A DNA stretch of 34,715 nt, taken from a virus. Location of the stretch: positions 1-34,715 of IMG/VR virus record IMGVR_UViG_3300020036_009482, one strand, 5' to 3'. A program made the translations under genes and the position numbers. This document shows positions 1,847 through 30,841 of the stretch, piece after piece (positions within the stretch are counted from its first letter, which is position 1; the number at the start of each line of letters is the position of its first letter). The notes under the pieces are model-generated. The model ran no database searches. It was not told the origin of the DNA and saw only the letters and a program-made list of their open reading frames with translations.

Positions 1847-3961
1847 ATGCCGGCAACAATTTTTAACTCATCCAAGGTAAAGGCTTTAAAAGAGACTTTA
1901 TCACTTAACGGAGGGGCCGATGTTATCAGCTCCACCACAGATCCAACGGCAGTAGCGGTTGACGCTCTTAGGGGGTCGTTGCTTTTAAACACCTCAAACG
2001 GTGAGATTTATAGAAAGCTTGATGATGGTAGTACCACTAACTGGCAAATAGTTGGTTCCAGTGGTGCCAGTGGTATTAACTACATTGAGAATCCGATCGC
2101 AGAGGCGAACACCGCAGGTTGGGCAACATATGCCGATGCCGCTGCCTCAAGGCCAGTGGATGGAACGGGTGGATCTGCAAACGTTACATGGACCAGAACA
2201 ACCAGCTCTCCTTTGCGAGGTATTGGTAGTTTCTTATTCACTAAAGACGCAGCTAACAGGCAGGGTCAGGGGGTAAGTTATGATCTTACGATTGATGCAG
2301 CCGATCAGGCTCGTGTTTTGCAAATTAGTTTTGATTATGAGATCGCATCGGGGACGTACTCAGGTGGCACACCTTCTACTGATTCTGATCTTATTGTTTA
2401 TTTTTATCGCACAACTGCGACTGGTAGGCTTATTGAACCTTCTGTCATCAAACTTGATGGCGGGGTGTCCGGTGTAAAATATTCTTACCGAGGAGAAATC
2501 CAGGCGGATTCTGATGCAACCGGATATCGTTTGATTATACACGTAGCTACAACAAGCGCATCGGCTTACACGGTTAAAATGGATAACTTTGTTGTAGGGC
2601 CCAGCAAAAACGTCGCTGGTTCTATAACAACTTCTCCAGTTTCATACACCCCGACATTAACAACATCAGGCGGCGGAAACATCACTTTGAACGCCACTGG
2701 ACAAATTGCTCCAAATGGTTGGTGGAGAAGAAATGGTGAATTTTTAGAAGGGCAAATATCATTTAGAAACGGCAGTGGTGGTGGGGCCACAGGAACTGCC
2801 GGAACTGTTCGGGTAGGCTTGCCAACTGGTTTAACTCCAAATACCTCAAAGATGGCCACAACCGCTGCGGGTCTAAGGGCAGATGGCCATGCCTCCTTGG
2901 GTACTACGTCCGATGTCGAGGCGACTGTTTTTGTTGATATTTCCGGTTACATAACCTTTTACTTTCAGGGTGGTGCAAACTTACTTGCGGTTTCAGATTT
3001 AGCAGCAAACTATATTGTCACGGCGTCTTTTAGATACCCAGTAAGCGGATGGGGAGCTACTGCAACGTTAGGACAAGATGCTGATACTAGGGTTGTTTCT
3101 TTAAGAGTTGGAACCACTGGAGCACCGACCGGCACTGTTGCCTCTAGTATAGGATCTTCGACAACAATTCAATTTAACAACGTAACAAATGACACTCATG
3201 GCGGATATGTCGCTGCTACCGGATATACTGTTCCAGTTGGTGGCTGGTATCAGATCCACGCTCAACAAGCCATTAGCCACGCTTCGGTTGCGGTTAACCA
3301 AGAGGCTGTAATGGGCCTCTACGTAAATGGAGTGCTTGTATCCACCGGCCCTACGACAAAATTTCAAAGCACTGGTGTGGTTATTTATTATCCTTCTATG
3401 GATGACACTAGGCTTTTAAAGGCCGGTGACATTGTTACTGTAAGGGTTTCTTCAACAGGAACCACCCCAGTCACAGCTTCCGATTCTAACGGGAACAATT
3501 TAATTATCAATCGAATATCTGGGCCCGCCCAAGTAGCAGCAAGCGAAGTGATTGCCTGTAAACTTAGGCTTCCAAGTAACCAAGCTGTAAGTGGATCTAG
3601 CGCAACATTGGACTTGTCTACGGTTGTATTTGATTCTCATGGTGGAGCTGATACCGCAAACGATCGATACAGAGTCCCTGCCCCAGGTTACTATAGGGTT
3701 TCGTGTGGAATAATCGGAAGTTCTTTAACCTCCGGAAGCATTGTTCAGATATTAATTACCGTGAATGGAACATCAAGATGTACGAGATCTCAATTTGCAG
3801 TTTCAACCGGAGAGGTTTGTGTTGTTGCTGAAGATGTCTTTCTTTTAAACTCGGGAGACTTAGTCGCTGTTACTGTAGGATCCACTGACACAAGTTGGAC
3901 TGTAACGGGTGGAACAGAGGCTGATTCAAGTTTTGCTATTCAACGAATAGGCGGAATCTAA
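1847..3961 (+). CDS. tail fibre / receptor-binding protein with tandem C1q/TNF-like C-terminal jelly-roll domains
   Basis: 704-aa ORF with AAGGAGG upstream. Two C-terminal segments fit the C1q-like pattern: ...TGYTVPVGGWYQI...LKAGDIVTVRV... and ...YRVPAPGYYRVS...LNSGDLVAVTV... Confidence 0.6.
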   Translation: MPATIFNSSKVKALKETLSLNGGADVISSTTDPTAVAVDALRGSLLLNTSNGEIYRKLDDGSTTNWQIVGSSGASGINYIENPIAEANTAGWATYADAAASRPVDGTGGSANVTWTRTTSSPLRGIGSFLFTKDAANRQGQGVSYDLTIDAADQARVLQISFDYEIASGTYSGGTPSTDSDLIVYFYRTTATGRLIEPSVIKLDGGVSGVKYSYRGEIQADSDATGYRLIIHVATTSASAYTVKMDNFVVGPSKNVAGSITTSPVSYTPTLTTSGGGNITLNATGQIAPNGWWRRNGEFLEGQISFRNGSGGGATGTAGTVRVGLPTGLTPNTSKMATTAAGLRADGHASLGTTSDVEATVFVDISGYITFYFQGGANLLAVSDLAANYIVTASFRYPVSGWGATATLGQDADTRVVSLRVGTTGAPTGTVASSIGSSTTIQFNNVTNDTHGGYVAATGYTVPVGGWYQIHAQQAISHASVAVNQEAVMGLYVNGVLVSTGPTTKFQSTGVVIYYPSMDDTRLLKAGDIVTVRVSSTGTTPVTASDSNGNNLIINRISGPAQVAASEVIACKLRLPSNQAVSGSSATLDLSTVVFDSHGGADTANDRYRVPAPGYYRVSCGIIGSSLTSGSIVQILITVNGTSRCTRSQFAVSTGEVCVVAEDVFLLNSGDLVAVTVGSTDTSWTVTGGTEADSSFAIQRIGGI

Positions 3962-16538: not shown

Positions 16539-16927
16539 TCAAACACCTTGTCTGCTTTGTCTAAAACTTCACTAGTTAATTTTCCGTAATAATCGATAAG
16601 GTTAGAGTAATTAATTTCTCCATCATCATTCTCAACCGGCAAAGCCTCTCCTGGCCATTCGTCTTGATTTATGTATTCTAACGCTATCCGCATTTCTTTC
16701 CACGACTGAAGGAGCTTGAGGACGAAGGTGGGGTTAAAAGTTGTTATATATTTCGCATCCTGTTTTATGTTTTCGTAATTATCGAAACAAAATTCCCAAG
16801 CACTAATTGGCCCGATTCCTCGTAATGTATCCTTATCTTCATCCTCATATTCTATTTCCCACTCTCCAGACTTCGCCTTCTTCGCAATCTCAATCAGCTC
16901 GTCTATTCGTTTATTAACGTCAGTCAT
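16535..16927 (-). CDS. hypothetical protein, Ead/Ea22-like resemblance
   Basis: 130 aa. FNPTFVLKLLQSWKEMRIALE resembles the NP-x-hydrophobic-LL helix of Ea22-like proteins. The resemblance is weak. Confidence 0.45.
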   Translation of the reverse strand: MTDVNKRIDELIEIAKKAKSGEWEIEYEDEDKDTLRGIGPISAWEFCFDNYENIKQDAKYITTFNPTFVLKLLQSWKEMRIALEYINQDEWPGEALPVENDDGEINYSNLIDYYGKLTSEVLDKADKVFE

Positions 16928-16944: not shown

Positions 16945-17196
16945 TTAACATCCGTAGCCGTTGCCGTCGCCGTCGCCGTAGCCGTAGCCGTAGCCGTAGC
17001 CGTCGCCGTTGCCGTCGCCGTCGCCGTTGCCGTAGCCGTAGCCGTTGCCGTAGCCGTAGCCGTCGCCGTCGCCGTTGCCGTAGCCGTAGCCGTTGCCGTA
17101 GCCGTAGCCGTCGCCGTAGCCGTAGCCGTCGCCGTCGCCGTCGCCGTTGCCGTAGCTACTTATGTTTGAGTCAAAGTTTATAGTTTTTTTGCCCAT
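16945..17196 (-). CDS. Gly-(Tyr/Asp/Asn) dipeptide-repeat protein
   Basis: 83-aa ORF, 68 residues of which are a strict G-X alternation (X = Y, D or N). It overlaps the upstream gene by 19 nt and has no clear RBS. Confidence 0.5.
   Translation of the reverse strand: MGKKTINFDSNISSYGNGDGDGDGYGYGDGYGYGNGYGYGNGDGDGYGYGNGYGYGNGDGDGNGDGYGYGYGYGDGDGNGYGC
16951..17154. repeat. 34 tandem hexanucleotide units (GCCGTN on + strand)
   Basis: Read directly: uninterrupted GCCGTA/GCCGTC/GCCGTT units. Only the first unit is imperfect (TCCGTA). Confidence 0.95.
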
Positions 17197-17495
17197 GCGG
17201 ATTCATTTACGCAAATTGTGGCAACAACGGTTAAATAATCGAACTCCACAAGTCCATTACATGGATCTAATTTTGTATCTTTTTTAGGACCTTCTTGAGC
17301 CAATTCTCCTAAACCTTTGGATGTTCCCCAATTTCGGATTACTGATGCCTGGTGCAATTTACATTCCGACCCAGAACGCTCCATTTTTCCAATCATTACC
17401 CATCCACGTTGAAGGATAACTATTTTCCATTCACCTGCGTATTCTACTCCTGGTTGAGCATAGTATTTAATTCCATTAACGGTTATTTGATCCAT
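17178..17495 (-). CDS. hypothetical protein
   Basis: 105-aa ORF with protein-like composition. Confidence 0.6.
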   Translation of the reverse strand: MDQITVNGIKYYAQPGVEYAGEWKIVILQRGWVMIGKMERSGSECKLHQASVIRNWGTSKGLGELAQEGPKKDTKLDPCNGLVEFDYLTVVATICVNESAWAKKL

Positions 17496-17516
17496 ATTTC
17501 TCCTTTGTTATTAAAG

Positions 17517-22493: not shown

Positions 22494-22652
22494 ATGGACG
22501 AAGATAGGCTTGATGAACTGGAATATATAGTTCGTGAATCACCAAGATCCATGGTCGAACTCTACCGAACAGATGTCATCCAACTCATCGACCTCGCACG
22601 AGAAACCCTCAAAACTCAAAAAGACCAAGAGGAAAAAGATCTGGGGATCTGA
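22494..22652 (+). CDS. 52-aa helical ORF, probably the true N-terminus of the downstream HNH protein (frame broken at an A5 run)
   Basis: Not in the track because it is under 60 aa. It encodes MDEDRLDELEYIVRESPRSMVELYRTDVIQLIDLARETLKTQKDQEEKDLGI and ends inside the 22534 ORF. Confidence 0.4.
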   Translation: MDEDRLDELEYIVRESPRSMVELYRTDVIQLIDLARETLKTQKDQEEKDLGI

Positions 22653-22947
22653 CCCCGCCTTCCTCAAAGCAATCCGTAAACTACCTTGCATACTCTGTGG
22701 GAGCCCTCCTCCCACCACTGCCTCTCACATAAAAACCCGCGGCTCAGGAGGCAAAGACGAACCCTTCAACGTCACACCCATGTGCTTTGACTGCCACCGC
22801 TACTTTGAAGATAATCGCAGAATCGTAATAATGAACAAATCCTACTTTCGCCAATATCTGAAAGAATTAGGTTGGGAAATCTGGTTCCAAAACAATAAGT
22901 TAATCATGCACCACCCAAAATATAACGACAAAGTAGAAATCCGCTAA
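22534..22947 (+). CDS. HNH-type nuclease (DUF968/Ref-like; C-x2-C ... H ... C-x2-C-H)
   Basis: Motif LPCILCGSPPPTTASHIKTRGSGGKDEPFNVTPMCFDCHRYFE. The N-terminal 39 codons from the GTG are low-complexity and overlap a better-looking frame. Confidence 0.65.
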   Translation: MNHQDPWSNSTEQMSSNSSTSHEKPSKLKKTKRKKIWGSDPAFLKAIRKLPCILCGSPPPTTASHIKTRGSGGKDEPFNVTPMCFDCHRYFEDNRRIVIMNKSYFRQYLKELGWEIWFQNNKLIMHHPKYNDKVEIR

Positions 22948-23912: not shown

Positions 23913-24102
23913 CGAAGGTAAACTAAAAGTATTCACACCCAAGGGTTGGGTTAGACCCTCTCATGGGGACTATCTTATGCCTATTGACAAAACCACGACC
24001 CTCATCATCAACGGTGACGCCATGGAATATCTTATGAAGAAAGATGAGAGGGATGAACCAAGCCAAGAGTCCGTTGAATTAGACGAGCACATTGATGCGT
24101 GA
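23854..24102 (+). CDS. hypothetical protein
   Basis: ATG lies 7 nt after GGGAG. The 3' end overlaps the terL GTG. Confidence 0.5.
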   Translation: MELIKLGKRKITARKYSQVDEGKLKVFTPKGWVRPSHGDYLMPIDKTTTLIINGDAMEYLMKKDERDEPSQESVELDEHIDA

Positions 24103-25454
24103 CTCCAGAAATCGAAGCCTACGCTAGAATTATCCAGGGCCTACACGAAAAGTTCCAGCCACACCCTGCCCAAATAAAAATAGGCCAAGCCCTCATAAGA
24201 GATAACTTCAAAGACGTATTTGTTGAGGCAGGACGAAACCTAGGTAAAACAACACTCGTTTGTTACCTTCTATGGAGATGGGCTGCCCTTAACCCCGGAA
24301 GTGAGAACTACTACTTTGCTCCATACATGAAGCAAGCCCGTGAGATTGTGTGGGCATCTTATATGCTTCAAAACTTTGGTCCAAGAGAATGGGTCTTTGA
24401 TGAGAACAACACTGAGATGCGTATCCCTTTTAGAAACGGCTCATTCATCAAGGCCGATGGCTCAGACAACGTAAATGCTTACCGGGGAGTTAAACCCAAC
24501 GGACTTATCGTGTTTGATGAGTTTAAAGACTTTAGGCCAGAATTCTACGATGCCTTCGACCCCAACCGCGCAGCTTACAATGCTCCACTAATTATCATCG
24601 GCACCCCTCCTGATAGGCAATGCCAGTTCTCAGAGGTTAGAGACGCATACAAAAAGAACCCAACTAAAGCCTACTTCCACGCTCCCACCACAGATAATCC
24701 CTACATCAGTAAAGAATGGCTCGAATCAAAAAGACTAGAGCTTATTGAACGGGGCGAGGAAGACGTATGGCAAAGAGAATACCTAGCCCTGCAAGTAACC
24801 AGTGGCGCAACAAAAATATTCCCAATGATCGACAAGTCTTTAGTCAAACCTCATGGCGAACTCATGCATTCAATAATGAGAGATTTAAAACGGCTAGAAT
24901 GGATTTGGTTTGCCGATCCTGCAGCCGCCTCAACATTTGCTGTACTCTTTGTAGCCTACAACCCATATACCAAGATGCTCTATTTGCTTGATGAGATCTA
25001 CGAACAAAACCAAGCTCAAATGACTGTCGTGCAAATCGGTAAACGCATTTTAGAAAAAAGAGATGAGCTAAATTCAAGAGCCGAGTGGAGACAGGGCTAC
25101 GATGAGGCAGCAACGTGGTTTCAAAACGAAATGCTTGATCACTTCAGTGAACATCTCGAACCAAGCCAAAAGTCAGCAAACGATAAAGAAAGCGGACTCA
25201 CACTCATCAAAGACGCCATTTTAAAAAACAAAGTCGTTATTTCAGACCGCTGCGTTAAGACGTTTAGAGAGATGGATAATTATTACAAGGATAGAAACGG
25301 TAATATCCCCAAGAAAGATGACCACAACATTGATAACCTTCGATACATTCTTGCGGCCCTGTATTACTCGCTTCATTCCGAGAAAGAAGAAGAAATTGAC
25401 GATTATCCACTTGGCGGCAGGTCTACAAGTCGTAAATTAACAGGTATACTTTAG
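24099..25454 (+). CDS. terL: terminase large subunit
   Basis: Walker A-like EAGRNLGKTT, Walker B-like LIVFDEF, and C-terminal nuclease motifs (WFADPAAAS, DEIY, DDHNIDNLRY). 451 aa. Confidence 0.9.
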   Translation: MTPEIEAYARIIQGLHEKFQPHPAQIKIGQALIRDNFKDVFVEAGRNLGKTTLVCYLLWRWAALNPGSENYYFAPYMKQAREIVWASYMLQNFGPREWVFDENNTEMRIPFRNGSFIKADGSDNVNAYRGVKPNGLIVFDEFKDFRPEFYDAFDPNRAAYNAPLIIIGTPPDRQCQFSEVRDAYKKNPTKAYFHAPTTDNPYISKEWLESKRLELIERGEEDVWQREYLALQVTSGATKIFPMIDKSLVKPHGELMHSIMRDLKRLEWIWFADPAAASTFAVLFVAYNPYTKMLYLLDEIYEQNQAQMTVVQIGKRILEKRDELNSRAEWRQGYDEAATWFQNEMLDHFSEHLEPSQKSANDKESGLTLIKDAILKNKVVISDRCVKTFREMDNYYKDRNGNIPKKDDHNIDNLRYILAALYYSLHSEKEEEIDDYPLGGRSTSRKLTGIL

Positions 25455-25684: not shown

Positions 25685-27889
25685 ATGTCTAGCAACTTCG
25701 ACGCCTTTGAATCTGACTCAGATACTTACGTCAACAAACCCAAAGAAGAAATTTGGGAACTAGGGGATATCTATTCGAAAGATAAATGGGATGAGGTAGC
25801 CAAATGGCTTGTCGGCCAAAAGAACTGGCTTCAAAGTGAAAACAGAGAACGCTTTAGATCCATTGAACACAACCTCTCGTTGTATAAAGGTATTCAATAC
25901 CAATCTCAGTCGATAAAAGAATCCGCAAGAGACCAAGGTATCGATAGATCTCAAAGCATTACTAAGATCGTCAGCAATCACATTTACGATCTCGTTCAAA
26001 ACAAAGTCAGTCGATTAATTAAGTATCGACCGGGAATTGTGGCCCTACCTACATCTAACGAGCTTGAAGATAGGGTTGGCGCTAAGATGAGCGAGAGTCT
26101 CATCCGTCACATTTGGTATCTCCAAGACTTCGAGGGCAAAGTTCAAAACGAGTTTGTGAAACTTGTTCACGTTATGGGTGAGGCCTACCTTGCTGTTTTG
26201 TGGGATCCAAACCAAGGCGAAATCCACGAGGACATGAGGGATTACCTTAAGGACCTTAATGAAAAAGGTGAGGTAATTCTTAAGTCTGACGATGGCACTC
26301 CAGAACTTGATGAAGAAGGTAAACCAATCAAACTAACCAAGGCTGTTAAATACGGTGATACGGTTTATGAGATTTGGTTTACGATGGATTGTTTGCTTGA
26401 GCGTAAAGATCAGTACGCAAAAGTAGATTACATGTATCACCGGGAACTTAAGAGCCGTGGTGAGATTAAAAGAAAATATCCTGAAGCCTTAGATCAAACC
26501 ACAGCCGATGATGGCAATAATTATTACGACTACGAAAAGATGCAGGTTAAGAAGCTGCATGACAAGGTTGCGGTATGGACCTTCTATCACCGTAAGACTG
26601 AAAACCTACCTAAGGGCGCAGTAATTAAACTCATTGGAAATAAGGTGGTTGAATGTAAACCACTTCCCTACACAAGCGGACAATTGCCAGTTGAAAGACT
26701 TACTGACATTGATCTACCAGGCCAAGTTCATGGCGAATCCTTTATTACGATGATCAAAGGATTAACGGGAACATACAATAATTTAACGAACATTATTTTA
26801 AGAAACCAAGTAATGGTTTCGCATCCTAAATGGGTGTTCCCAGCTGGTTCTATTAAGAAGGAATCACTTGGTAACGACATCACACTTGTCGAATATAAGG
26901 GTCCACAGCCTCCGGCGCTAGTGCAACAAAACCCAACACCGGCTGAGGTATTTACCTTTAGAGACAACCTTAAGACTGAGTTTCAACAAATATCGGGCAT
27001 CTTTGGAGTTAGTCGAGGTGAGCCGCCTCCAGGAATTAAAGCAGGCGTTGCGCTTCAGTTCTTAGCCGAGCAAGAAAACGAACGATTTAACGAAATGGTT
27101 CTTAAGTACAACGAATGGATAAGACAGGTTGCTGTTAAAACTCTTGAGCGTTGTGCAGATAACTACGAGGCCGATGATAAACGAATGATCATGGTTCTTG
27201 GCACCCAGAATAAATGGATGACCACGTTCTTTGATGTGAAGTATTTAACTAGGAAATACGACGTTAGAGTTCAAAACGCCTCAGCCCTTCCACAAAGCAA
27301 AGCAGCTAGAACCCAATATCTTTTAGATTTAAATCAACAATTCCCTGAGCAAGTTCCTCCGGAAATGGTTTTAGACCTTTTAGATATATCTCAGCCTGAG
27401 AAGTTTATTGATTATTCAACCGCTACGGTAAGAGCGGCTGAAGCTGAGAACGAATCTATTATGCAAGGAGTGGGTAAGCTTAATGACCCACAAGACTACG
27501 AAGATCACATTATGATGTGGAAAGTTCACGTTAAACAAATGCGTGAGTGGTCATTTAAAAACCAAACTCCACAAGAGATTCAGCAAAGAATGAAAGATCA
27601 TGTAGCGGCTCACGAGATGCTCATGATTGATCGGGCTCAAAAGAATCCCGCTTATTTAGAACAGTGTATGGCATTACCAGGCTGGCCGATATTCTTCCCA
27701 ATTGAATCGGCTATGCCTGCTCCAAGCCCAGCTCCAATCGGTCCAGAAGCAGGCCCTCCCGCTGAAGGACCCATTGGGGCTGAGCCTGGTTTACCCGTGA
27801 ACATACCTCCGGCTGAACTTGTAGATCAGTTGGAGGCAGAAAATATTACGCCCACAGGAGGCCCTATCGAACCATCAACAGCCATATAG
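25685..27889 (+). CDS. portal protein
   Basis: 734-aa ORF directly after terL and before the scaffold and coat genes. It has a P/A/G-rich C-terminal tail. Assignment rests mainly on size and synteny. Confidence 0.75.
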   Translation: MSSNFDAFESDSDTYVNKPKEEIWELGDIYSKDKWDEVAKWLVGQKNWLQSENRERFRSIEHNLSLYKGIQYQSQSIKESARDQGIDRSQSITKIVSNHIYDLVQNKVSRLIKYRPGIVALPTSNELEDRVGAKMSESLIRHIWYLQDFEGKVQNEFVKLVHVMGEAYLAVLWDPNQGEIHEDMRDYLKDLNEKGEVILKSDDGTPELDEEGKPIKLTKAVKYGDTVYEIWFTMDCLLERKDQYAKVDYMYHRELKSRGEIKRKYPEALDQTTADDGNNYYDYEKMQVKKLHDKVAVWTFYHRKTENLPKGAVIKLIGNKVVECKPLPYTSGQLPVERLTDIDLPGQVHGESFITMIKGLTGTYNNLTNIILRNQVMVSHPKWVFPAGSIKKESLGNDITLVEYKGPQPPALVQQNPTPAEVFTFRDNLKTEFQQISGIFGVSRGEPPPGIKAGVALQFLAEQENERFNEMVLKYNEWIRQVAVKTLERCADNYEADDKRMIMVLGTQNKWMTTFFDVKYLTRKYDVRVQNASALPQSKAARTQYLLDLNQQFPEQVPPEMVLDLLDISQPEKFIDYSTATVRAAEAENESIMQGVGKLNDPQDYEDHIMMWKVHVKQMREWSFKNQTPQEIQQRMKDHVAAHEMLMIDRAQKNPAYLEQCMALPGWPIFFPIESAMPAPSPAPIGPEAGPPAEGPIGAEPGLPVNIPPAELVDQLEAENITPTGGPIEPSTAI

Positions 27890-29072: not shown

Positions 29073-29384
29073 ATGGCAACATTTAACTTAACCTCCGCTA
29101 CTAATCTTTTTAAGATTAAGTACGGAAAACTATCAGCAGAAACCTATAACGCAGCAAACGTAATGCTCGGACGAGTAAAGAAAGAATATAACTTTACCGG
29201 TAAGAGAATGGACGTTGCAGTTCCTACCTCCTTTTCAGGCGGTGTTGGTGCTGGATCGCTACCCCTAGCTAACTCAGCGGCTTACCAAGACGCTCAGATT
29301 ACAGCTAAGAAGAACTACTCGGTTGTTGAAATCGAGCGTGAAGCAATTGCTGCATCTGAAAATGATGAAGGCGCTTTCGTCCGT
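29073..29384 (+). CDS. major capsid protein, exon 1 of 3
   Basis: GAGGAG RBS upstream. The N-terminus is MATFNLTSATNLFKIKYGKL... The unspliced frame runs 6 codons into the insert and stops at 29400-29402. Confidence 0.75.
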
Positions 29385-29638
29385 ATGGTTATTGCGGCTT
29401 AAGGTAGGAATACCTTTTGTAAATTGGGCAAAATCGGTGAACTCTGAGATGAGAATACCGAGGTAAGCTAGAGAGTTAAAATAATCTAGCCACCGTAACG
29501 CGTAGTGGGTGACCCCCGAAAGGGAATATAAACCACCAAGAGTGTCCGACTCCCCGAACGGGAGATAATGTACGCTGAGCTAACTCGAATAAAAGGGTTA
29601 GAAGTAGGGGATAAAAAGCCTCTACGATAACAGGTCTG
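29385..29638 (+). ncRNA. group I-like (IA-type, P7.1-bearing) intron 1 in the coat gene, ORF-less
   Basis: Helices P1-P9.1 can be drawn (see findings). A paralogous copy with compensatory changes is at 30427-30683. Boundaries are inferred from P1 (CCGU/GCGG), a terminal G, and frame restoration. Confidence 0.65.
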
Positions 29639-30426
29639 ATGACCAAAGAAGTTGTTAAAAAGGGTGTTGAATCCTTTAACCGCAACATCAGCCGTCAGCT
29701 TTTCGGTTCTGGTAGCCTTGGTGTTACAACTGCAGCTGCCGCTGGCGGTACTGCTACTGCACCCACAGTAATCATTTCTACGGCTACATGGAAGGAAGCC
29801 AATTTCGAAGAAAAGGATTACATCATGGTTGATTCTGTAGCTAACCCCTACAGCACATCAAACATCTGGGAAATCACTGCGGTTGCTCCTAGCACCCGTA
29901 CACTTACTCTTGCTCGAATTGCTGGATCGGTAGACTTGACCGGTGATAGCGGAGCTAAGACTTTGTACATGCAGTATTCCAAAGACAATGAACTCACTGG
30001 TCTTAAGACTGCTTTGGACGCCACTTCTGGAACCCTTTACGGTGTAACCGTTGGTCGACGATGGCAGGCTTTCCAAAAAGCTGCCGGCGGTTCAGGTCTT
30101 ACCACCGATTTCATGAACGAAGTTATGCTCGGAGTTGAGCGTCAGTGTGGCAAAGTGCCCAACCTCATCATCACAAGCTACGTTCAATACCGCAAACTCT
30201 TGAACCAACTCGAAGATCAGAAACAATACATCATTGAGCCCAGGATGCCTGAACTCAAAGGTAAGGTTTCTTTCCGAGGCGTTGAGTTCATGAGCAATGC
30301 TGGTCCTGTAGGTGTGTTTGTTGATCGTTTCGTTGAAGACGACAGAATGTACTTCTTGAACGATAACTTCATGACCATCTATCACCGACCCGGATCTCCT
30401 GCTTGGGCAGAAGACGACGGAACCGT
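29639..30426 (+). CDS. major capsid protein, exon 2 of 3
   Basis: Open frame continuous with exon 1 after the insert is removed. It contains ...FNRNISRQLFGSGSLG... and ...WAEDDGTV. Confidence 0.75.
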
Positions 30427-30683
30427 AAACTTAGCTATTGCGGCTTGAGGTAGGAATATCTCATGTAACTTCGGGCAAAATCGGTGAACCCTGAAACGGG
30501 AATACCGAGGTAAGTTGGGATTAAAAGCCCCCAACCACCGTAACGCGTAGTAGGTGAAACTCGAAAGAGAATATAAACCTACCAAGAGTGTCCGAGACCC
30601 AGAACGGGTTAAAATGTACGCTGAGCTTATTCGAACAAAAGAATAAGAAGTAGGGGATAAAAAGCCCTTACGGTAACAGACTG
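30427..30683 (+). ncRNA. group I-like intron 2 in the coat gene, ORF-less, paralogous to intron 1
   Basis: It has the same helix set as intron 1, the same 5' context CCGT|A, and the same 3' end ...AACAG(N)CTG|AT. Confidence 0.65.
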
Positions 30684-30792
30684 ATTTCTAAGAAAAGCAT
30701 CTGCGGATGACTACGAAGGACGATACGTGTCCTATAGCGAATTCTATTGCCCCCCGTCATTTCATGGGGTGCTCACAGGACTTGCTACCTAA
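30684..30792 (+). CDS. major capsid protein, exon 3 of 3
   Basis: A 36-codon open frame with no start codon or RBS, encoding (V)FLRKASADDYEGRYVSYSEFYCPPSFHGVLTGLAT. A terminator follows. Confidence 0.65.
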
Positions 30793-30813: not shown

Positions 30814-30841
30814 CCTAGACCCCACGGTGGGTCTAGGTTTT
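30814..30841 (+). terminator. intrinsic terminator after the coat gene
   Basis: CCTAGACCC (30814-30822) pairs with GGGTCTAGG (30829-30837) around a 6-nt loop, followed by TTTT. Confidence 0.75.

Follow-up and report, generated by a model that had tools for sequence, protein, structure and literature searches.

Why is the major capsid gene of an uncultured phage called as three open reading frames (ORFs), and what are the two related inserts that separate its pieces? We addressed this question in one stretch of 34,715 nucleotides (nt), referred to here as the window, which is a phage genome segment with tail-like ORFs. A preliminary description made from the letters of the window had marked positions 30427 to 30683 as the second copy of a structured RNA element. 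In our reading, which we hold with high confidence, this segment is the second of two ORF-less group I introns (subgroup IA, Twort-like), predicted to be self-splicing, in the major capsid gene of an uncultured tailed phage of ~35 kb. The relevant features of the window are these:

22534-22947, plus strand, free-standing HNH ORF (PF01844, E value 2.4e-5), 1.2 kb upstream of the terminase large subunit gene
24099-25454, terminase large subunit
25685-27889, portal
29073-29384, plus strand, capsid exon 1 (104 codons, 3' end ...GTC CGT)
29385-29638, plus strand, intron 1 (group I in our reading, no ORF; 254 nt; covariance model match of 326 bits)
29639-30426, plus strand, capsid exon 2 (788 nt, ATG ACC AAA ... 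ACC GT)
30427-30683, plus strand, intron 2, the insert under study (257 nt; covariance model match of 328 bits)
30684-30792, plus strand, capsid exon 3 (A, 35 codons, and TAA)
30814-30837, plus strand, perfect GC-rich 10-bp hairpin, CCTAGACCCC ACGG TGGGTCTAGG, followed by TTTT

The two inserts, 29385-29638 and 30427-30683, split the major capsid gene into three pieces. The ORFs as called include 29073-29402 and 29639-30448, the second of which begins with ATG, and exon 3 has no start codon. We found that the joined pieces match the major head protein phrog_14242 and, weakly, Pfam SU10_MCP. More than 1300 capsid homologues were found, mostly single proteins of 397 to 412 amino acids (aa), and the ten that we aligned are continuous over both sites (...EGAFVR^MTKE... 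and ...DDGTV^FLRK..., with carets here and below for the junctions). Removal of the inserts at a U^...G^ border restores the capsid reading frame, and the borders are unique given two conditions, a U before the 5' splice site and a G as the last intron base. The spliced coding sequence is 1209 nt long and encodes 402 aa, which align without gaps to a 402-aa homologue (P0001) at 91% identity. We rejected 5' junctions at the start of the shared block ATTGCGGCTT, which leave four extra residues per site; the homologue alignment set the 5' splice sites 6 and 10 nt upstream of this block, at CCGT^. In exact-word searches, each of the conserved blocks given in the preliminary description occurred twice in the window and nowhere else in it.

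Gene callers give separate ORFs here, the second with an ATG start, and on that basis the inserts could be a repeated structured intergenic RNA (a regulatory element, a small RNA, or a repeat) lying between three separately translated capsid fragments. We give this reading almost no credence: the homologues are single proteins across both sites, the third fragment would lack a start codon, the borders carry the U^...G^ signature and the flanks pair with the insert in P1 and P10, intron I2 of Staphylococcus phage Twort has a homologous core, and the insert is precisely missing from a related contig (L075). Two introns within one capsid gene remain the preferred reading.

When the frame of the upstream exon is followed into either intron, the stop falls in an equivalent place, the opening base pair of P2, as TAA in copy 1 and as TGA in copy 2, despite different codon phases of insertion and unequal P1 loop lengths. 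Thus, the products of unspliced mRNA would be truncated 5 to 6 full codons into each intron. Two 367-aa homologues (P0097 and P0101) have unrelated tails, ...HRPGFGKQTCPFVTGVAEA and ...HHRPDQSEVALAA, directly before the DDGTV motif. The tails look as if translation had run into introns inserted at one or more additional C-terminal sites, and the LAA-stop ending resembles the IAA-stop read-through of the window introns.

The hairpin at 30814-30837, 22 nt 3' of the capsid stop codon and outside the intron, is likely the intrinsic transcription terminator of the capsid gene. As for the phage itself, a capsid protein search for cultured relatives gave only one match, at 26% identity, and a search of genome contigs gave a single match, 46% identical, in an Epsilonproteobacteria MAG.

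We confirmed that one element occurs twice, at 30427-30683 (257 nt) and at 29385-29638 (254 nt). The copies are 87 to 90% identical in MAFFT alignments and 82% identical in a structure-fitted alignment. The preliminary description had listed seven helix comparisons in which the letters change while the pairing stays, and all seven are present in the sequence and pair as claimed. In P2, AAGGTA/TACCTT becomes GAGGTA/TATCTC through one double change and one G-C to G.U change. P5 goes from CTC/GAG to CCC/GGG and the tip of P7.1 from CCC/GGG to CTC/GAG, and three double changes turn P6 from GCTAGA/TCTAGC into GTTGGG/CCCAAC. In P8, C-G becomes G.U and U-A becomes A-U; P9 has two double changes and one U.G to U-A change. 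At the base of P7.1, a bulged G of copy 1 gives way to an A-U pair in copy 2 through a 1-nt insertion. The joining regions had been described as essentially identical and single-stranded. They are indeed identical between the copies, but several of them are not single-stranded: they hold the guide GCGG and core helices. The core helices inside these invariant blocks are P3 (GGGCA/TGTCC), P4 (TCGGT/ACCGA), P7 (CGCGTA/TACGC-G), and P9.1 (GTAGGGG/CCYYTAC), all of which are invariant between the two copies and covary across the wider family.

The claim that the substitutions are compensatory and fall in paired columns held when counted. In a structure-guided alignment of the two copies, with P1, P3, P4, P7, and a 7-bp P9.1 added, we scored 64 pairs and found standard pairs in 128 of 128 cells. 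Among the 64 pairs, both partners differ in ten and a single partner, via G.U, in four; none is broken. When the 3' partners were slid by 1 to 3 columns, 32 to 47% of the cells were paired and there were 0 or 1 double changes; in the shuffle control, 1 of 500 shuffles reached the observed values. Since no pair is lost in either copy and all changes are compensatory, the fold is under ongoing purifying selection.

The preliminary description had also argued that selection acts on RNA structure and not on protein coding, and the compensatory pattern bears this out, as does the lack of a reading frame common to both copies on either strand; stops occur in every plus-strand frame of the introns. 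Intron 2 has a minus-strand frame without a stop in any of its 85 codons, and ATG is repeated at both ends of intron 1; these features could speak for a small protein on the opposite strand or for ribosome bypass (programmed translational hopping) of an unspliced message, a reading that we consider extremely improbable. The same minus-strand frame in intron 1 is broken by indels and two stops, the substitutions track base pairing rather than codon positions, and matching take-off and landing codons are missing from intron 2. To our knowledge, the only well-known bypass gap is the 50 nt of T4 gene 60, and the 254 to 257 nt here are five times that length.

The helices P1, P10, P3, P4, P7, and P9.1 had not been named in the preliminary description, nor had the restoration of the capsid gene upon insert removal. 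With them, both copies have the helix order P2, P3, P4, P5, P6, P7, P7.1, P3', P8, P7', P9, P9.1, tail, and G, at the following positions (all on the plus strand):

P1: intron 1, 29381-29384 with 29394-29397; intron 2, 30423-30426 with 30440-30443
P10, guide with 3' exon: intron 1, 29386-29392 with 29639-29645; intron 2, 30430-30438 with 30684-30692
P2: intron 1, 29401-29416; intron 2, 30447-30462
P3: intron 1, 29424-29430 with 29543-29549; intron 2, 30471-30477 with 30589-30595
P4: intron 1, 29434-29438 with 29457-29461; intron 2, 30481-30485 with 30504-30508
P5: intron 1, 29442-29453; intron 2, 30489-30500
P6: intron 1, 29467-29490; intron 2, 30514-30535
P7: intron 1, 29499-29504 with 29571-29577; intron 2, 30544-30549 with 30617-30623
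P7.1: intron 1, 29505-29536; intron 2, 30550-30582
P8: intron 1, 29550-29564; intron 2, 30596-30610
P9: intron 1, 29580-29601; intron 2, 30626-30647
P9.1: intron 1, 29604-29625; intron 2, 30650-30671
Terminal G, directly before the 3' exons: intron 1, 29638; intron 2, 30683

In both copies, P1 pairs exon CCGU with intron GCGG, places a U.G at the splice site, and has only 4 bp. P10, as read off the sequence, has 7 bp in copy 1 (ATGACCA with TGGTTAT) and 2 + 5 bp in copy 2 (AT..CTAAG with CTTAG..AT, with an internal 2x2 mismatch). P3 and P7 make up the core pseudoknot of each copy. P7 (C-GCGUA/UACGC-U-G) has a bulged U and the layout seen in td and Twort, and it is the predicted guanosine site. 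P7.1 is one hairpin with an internal loop, and it covaries; a separate P7.2 hairpin was not evident in either copy. The minimum free energy (MFE) fold of each copy alone recovered P2, P3, P4, P5, P6, P7.1, P8, P9, and P9.1, with an MFE z of about -3.9 for both copies (-3.95 for intron 2). A candidate long-range pairing of GGCTT, the bases after the guide, with AAGCC in the P9.1 loop was rejected because the GCC belongs to the 7-bp P9.1 stem and relatives have no complement.

The group I identity follows from the U.G in P1, the terminal G, the helix order, the bulged-U P7, the copy-specific P10, and the homology to Twort. We infer the splicing chemistry by analogy with this class. The capsid pre-mRNA would fold into the P3-P9 catalytic core, and the last four exon bases, CCGU, would pair with the guide GCGG to form P1, placing the U.G wobble at the splice site. 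A free guanosine docked in P7 would attack after the splice-site U. P10 would form between the bases just 5' of the guide and the first bases of the next exon, and the terminal G (29638 or 30683) would enter the G site, with exon ligation to follow. Removal of both introns would then yield the 402-aa capsid protein.

We built a covariance model from the two window copies only and searched IMG/VR contigs fetched with two conserved words, together with three GenBank phage loci. The model gave 62 further matches (~60 relatives) in phage contigs, and the alignment with metagenomic homologues that the preliminary description had proposed extends the compensatory pattern to these ~60 relatives. Across 52 distinct sequences, 94% of the cells were paired versus 34 to 44% in slid controls, and 52 of 55 pairs had double changes, a count that leans towards structure because the family alignment was fitted to the model. 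The P3 pseudoknot is absent from the search model and thus provides an independent test: 82% of its cells were paired versus 23 to 44% in slid controls, with double changes in 7 of 7 pairs.

Most of the relatives lie in capsid, terminase, and tail genes, and others lie in tape-measure and helicase genes. The closest relatives of the window copies (72 to 76% identity) are in other capsid families, phrog_334 and phrog_9953; terminase, tape-measure, and helicase genes hold more distant ones, some of which have LAGLIDADG or other endonuclease ORFs nearby. Annotated introns also lie next to some relatives. Among 82 loci with the window's capsid family, only 7 carry an intron, and all four insertion sites in this family fall in the best-conserved protein segments. 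The introns of related capsid genes are 59 to 65% identical and more distant than some introns in unrelated genes, so the introns have moved horizontally.

Several contigs hold more than one family member. Four of them (L072, L022, L020, and L038) have 2 or 3 intron copies each, and one (L035, IMGVR_UViG_3300029918_000012) has five model matches within the 2.3 kb from 607 to 2879:

607-802, intron model match
804-1081, intron model match
1806-2167, intron model match
2185-2463, intron model match
2836-2879, intron model match

These matches imply putative tandem introns with micro-exons of roughly 12 to 28 nt, like I2 and I3 of Twort orf142. Clostridium phage phiCD211 (LN681537.2, 28576-29156; positions 2455-3035 of our locus L003) carries two different group I introns. 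The family member there (2455-2754, 148 bits) is 16 nt upstream of the second intron, which the record annotates as Intron_gpI (2770-3035) and which the Rfam model RF00028 matched at 2771-3035 with 41.7 bits, under its gathering score. Both introns fall in the interval from the "minor tail protein" ORF to the tape-measure ORF, so the record has probably mis-split that gene.

The guide covaries with the exon across the family (CGGU/GCCG, GGGU/GCCC, and GGAU/GUCC), and the fourth P1 pair is U.G in 23 of the 52 family sequences. Where relatives occupy other sites, guide and P10 segment alike change with the exon, and P10 has 6 to 8 bp when read directly from the letters. At the capsid site after KIKYG (L099, L108, L131, L143, and L145), the exon CGGU is matched by the guide GCCG; in L099 (CGGU^..TAACTT GCCG), the P10 segment TAACTT fits the 3' exon AAGTTA. 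The capsid site after HRPDFG (L150) has the exon GGAU and the guide GUCC. In the tape-measure region of Arcanobacterium phage TPWB06, we found GGGU^AA ATGTTATT GCCC with the 3' exon AATAACAT.

The inserts could instead be decaying or protein-dependent group I introns that no longer self-splice, with a phage or host factor needed or a low efficiency tolerated. Their P1 is short (4 bp), they lack an endonuclease that would maintain mobility, they go unrecognized by RF00028, and some Bastillevirinae introns splice only in infected cells (PMC11878797). We nevertheless consider this improbable, as the capsid protein is essential, 64 of 64 pairs are intact in both copies with changes that are all compensatory, and intron 1 is identical in a second phage. 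We retain the reading as predicted self-splicing introns.

That second phage is represented by two metagenomic contigs (L075 and L076) that are ~98.5% identical to the window and have a 257-nt gap exactly at 30427-30683. They are a natural empty site for intron 2 and keep intron 1, which is 100% identical. The empty allele has four synonymous differences at most 12 nt from the intron 2 site, the background divergence being ~1.4%: upstream, ACT in the empty allele versus ACC in the occupied one, and downstream, TTC CTT CGA versus TTT CTA AGA. At three of these four positions, the occupied allele has the letter that makes P1 or P10 stronger. The flank pattern could fit any of three scenarios: the intron was gained and its flanks were co-converted, it was lost when the locus recombined with an intron-less allele, or the exon was selected for pairing. 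Other differences between these contigs and the window also come in small clusters (for example, alignment columns 91-108 and 962-974), a sign that these phages may have exchanged segments by mosaic recombination.

No other sampled intron is as close to either window copy as its sister: in the structural alignment the two are 82% identical, versus at most 76% to any other, and both sit at CCGU^AU with the guide GCGG in common. The second copy most likely arose by duplication of one intron to a site with the same 4-nt P1 target, as judged from the nearest-neighbor identity together with the common 4-mer, weak evidence alone. After duplication, the P10 guide and the synonymous exon positions would have been fitted. 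We found no homing endonuclease ORF in either intron. The only endonuclease-like ORF in the window is the free-standing HNH ORF at 22534-22947, which is probably a packaging-associated HNH.

Three contigs carry introns that are 84 to 89% identical to one another in homologous major head genes of phrog_334 (L013 7307-7567, L009 3268-3527, and L006 857-1114). These introns lie at three different sites, after ..YAIG, ..FTGA, and ..KDKG, with the exon 4-mers CGGU, CGGU, and GGGU and the guides GCCG, GCCG, and GCCC, respectively. Together, the window copies and this trio are circumstantial evidence that such introns move, independently of an endonuclease, to new sites matched by their 4-nt guides. 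The mechanism usually proposed is reverse splicing. We therefore raise, tentatively and as a doubtful possibility, that this ORF-less lineage is actively mobile without a homing endonuclease: it may have jumped repeatedly to capsid sites with the same 4-nt P1 target, via reverse splicing and recombination or a comparable route, with tuning of P10 and synonymous exon positions afterward. The sister copies at CCGU^AU, the empty allele with its fitted flanks, and the phrog_334 trio are what suggest this. A metagenome scan for near-identical intron cores returned only contigs already known, and in it we found no allele with intron 2 alone and no donor allele.

Mechanistically, nothing here is new; the locus is a clean natural example of structure-preserving divergence and exon-matched guides, and the inserts belong to a sizeable family that current RNA annotation misses. 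The capsid gene was called as three ORFs, and the standard Rfam model missed the cause. That model likewise overlooks the ~60 relatives that IMG/VR and GenBank phages carry in capsid, terminase, tape-measure, and helicase genes, and a family-specific covariance model would mend many broken structural genes in viromes. The spread of endonuclease-free group I introns still rests on circumstantial evidence (PMC3984707). One locus with two diverged copies, an occupied/empty polymorphism with fitted flanks, and guides that track exons at four or more sites is a useful natural data set for it. For biotechnology, these are compact (~250 nt) predicted ribozymes whose short guides are easily reprogrammed.

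Among known systems, the closest comparison is with Twort. The two-copy model matched intron I2 of Staphylococcus phage Twort orf142 over its full length, at 16979-17241 (48.5 bits, E value 4e-15), and RF00028 identified the same region as Intron_gpI, its matches being 16606-16892, 16973-17197, and 17248-17506 (63 to 101 bits; the orf142 introns). The sequence matched, at orf142 I2, is presumably that of the crystallized ribozyme. The passage of PMC10136302 that cites Landthaler & Shub 1999 describes three introns in Twort orf142, of which I2 and I3 are highly similar, belong to subgroup IA2, and can skip the intervening 23-nt exon. Twort I2 is the crystallized Twort ribozyme (PMC3984707). Like I2 and I3, the window introns are small (~250 nt), lack ORFs, and occur as several similar copies in one gene of a phage structural region; the helix order, an extra pairing between P7 and P3', and the P9-P9.1 tail are also the same. 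In contrast, the window phage is an unrelated uncultured phage of ~35 kb, the exon between the copies is 788 nt rather than 23 nt, and P7 is GCGUA/UACGC rather than GACUA/UAGUC. Twort has two hairpins, P7.1 and P7.2, where the window copies have one long P7.1 hairpin with an internal loop. On the basis of the Twort match and the P7.1 insertion, we assign the window introns to subgroup IA (phage type), with IA2 as the candidate.

RF00028 describes the same RNA class as the window introns and scores the Twort introns, yet it gave no match (cmscan) on the whole window, on the 2-kb region, or on the isolated intron at E ≤ 10. At the gathering score, it also gave no match in 15 loci that carry family members. 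Its positive controls worked, both on the Twort introns and on the neighboring phiCD211 intron (41.7 bits). The miss is a limit of the model and not a defining property of the group I class, and the incompleteness of RF00028 for phage introns has already been discussed (PMC11878797). Since the two-copy model matched Twort I2 and RF00028 found no window copy, we place the inserts in a divergent Twort-like branch outside the reach of RF00028.

The introns of T4 td, nrdB, and nrdD (group IA2) share with the window introns a bulged nucleotide in P7, P7.1-type insertions, the interruption of phage protein-coding genes at conserved motifs, and, by analogy, the group I chemistry. They differ in carrying homing endonuclease ORFs (I-TevI, II, and III) and moving by DNA homing, whereas the window introns carry no such ORF. 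The two-copy model gave no match to the T4 td intron in L158, which is split by a 738-nt ORF.

For rDNA, related group I introns at different sites are circumstantial evidence for transposition by reverse splicing (PMC3984707). The window introns differ in that they interrupt a protein-coding phage gene, match their targets with a guide of only 4 nt, and would move by a putative RNA-level step; the likeness to the rDNA case is that sister introns occupy different sites of one gene, each with a target that matches the P1 guide.
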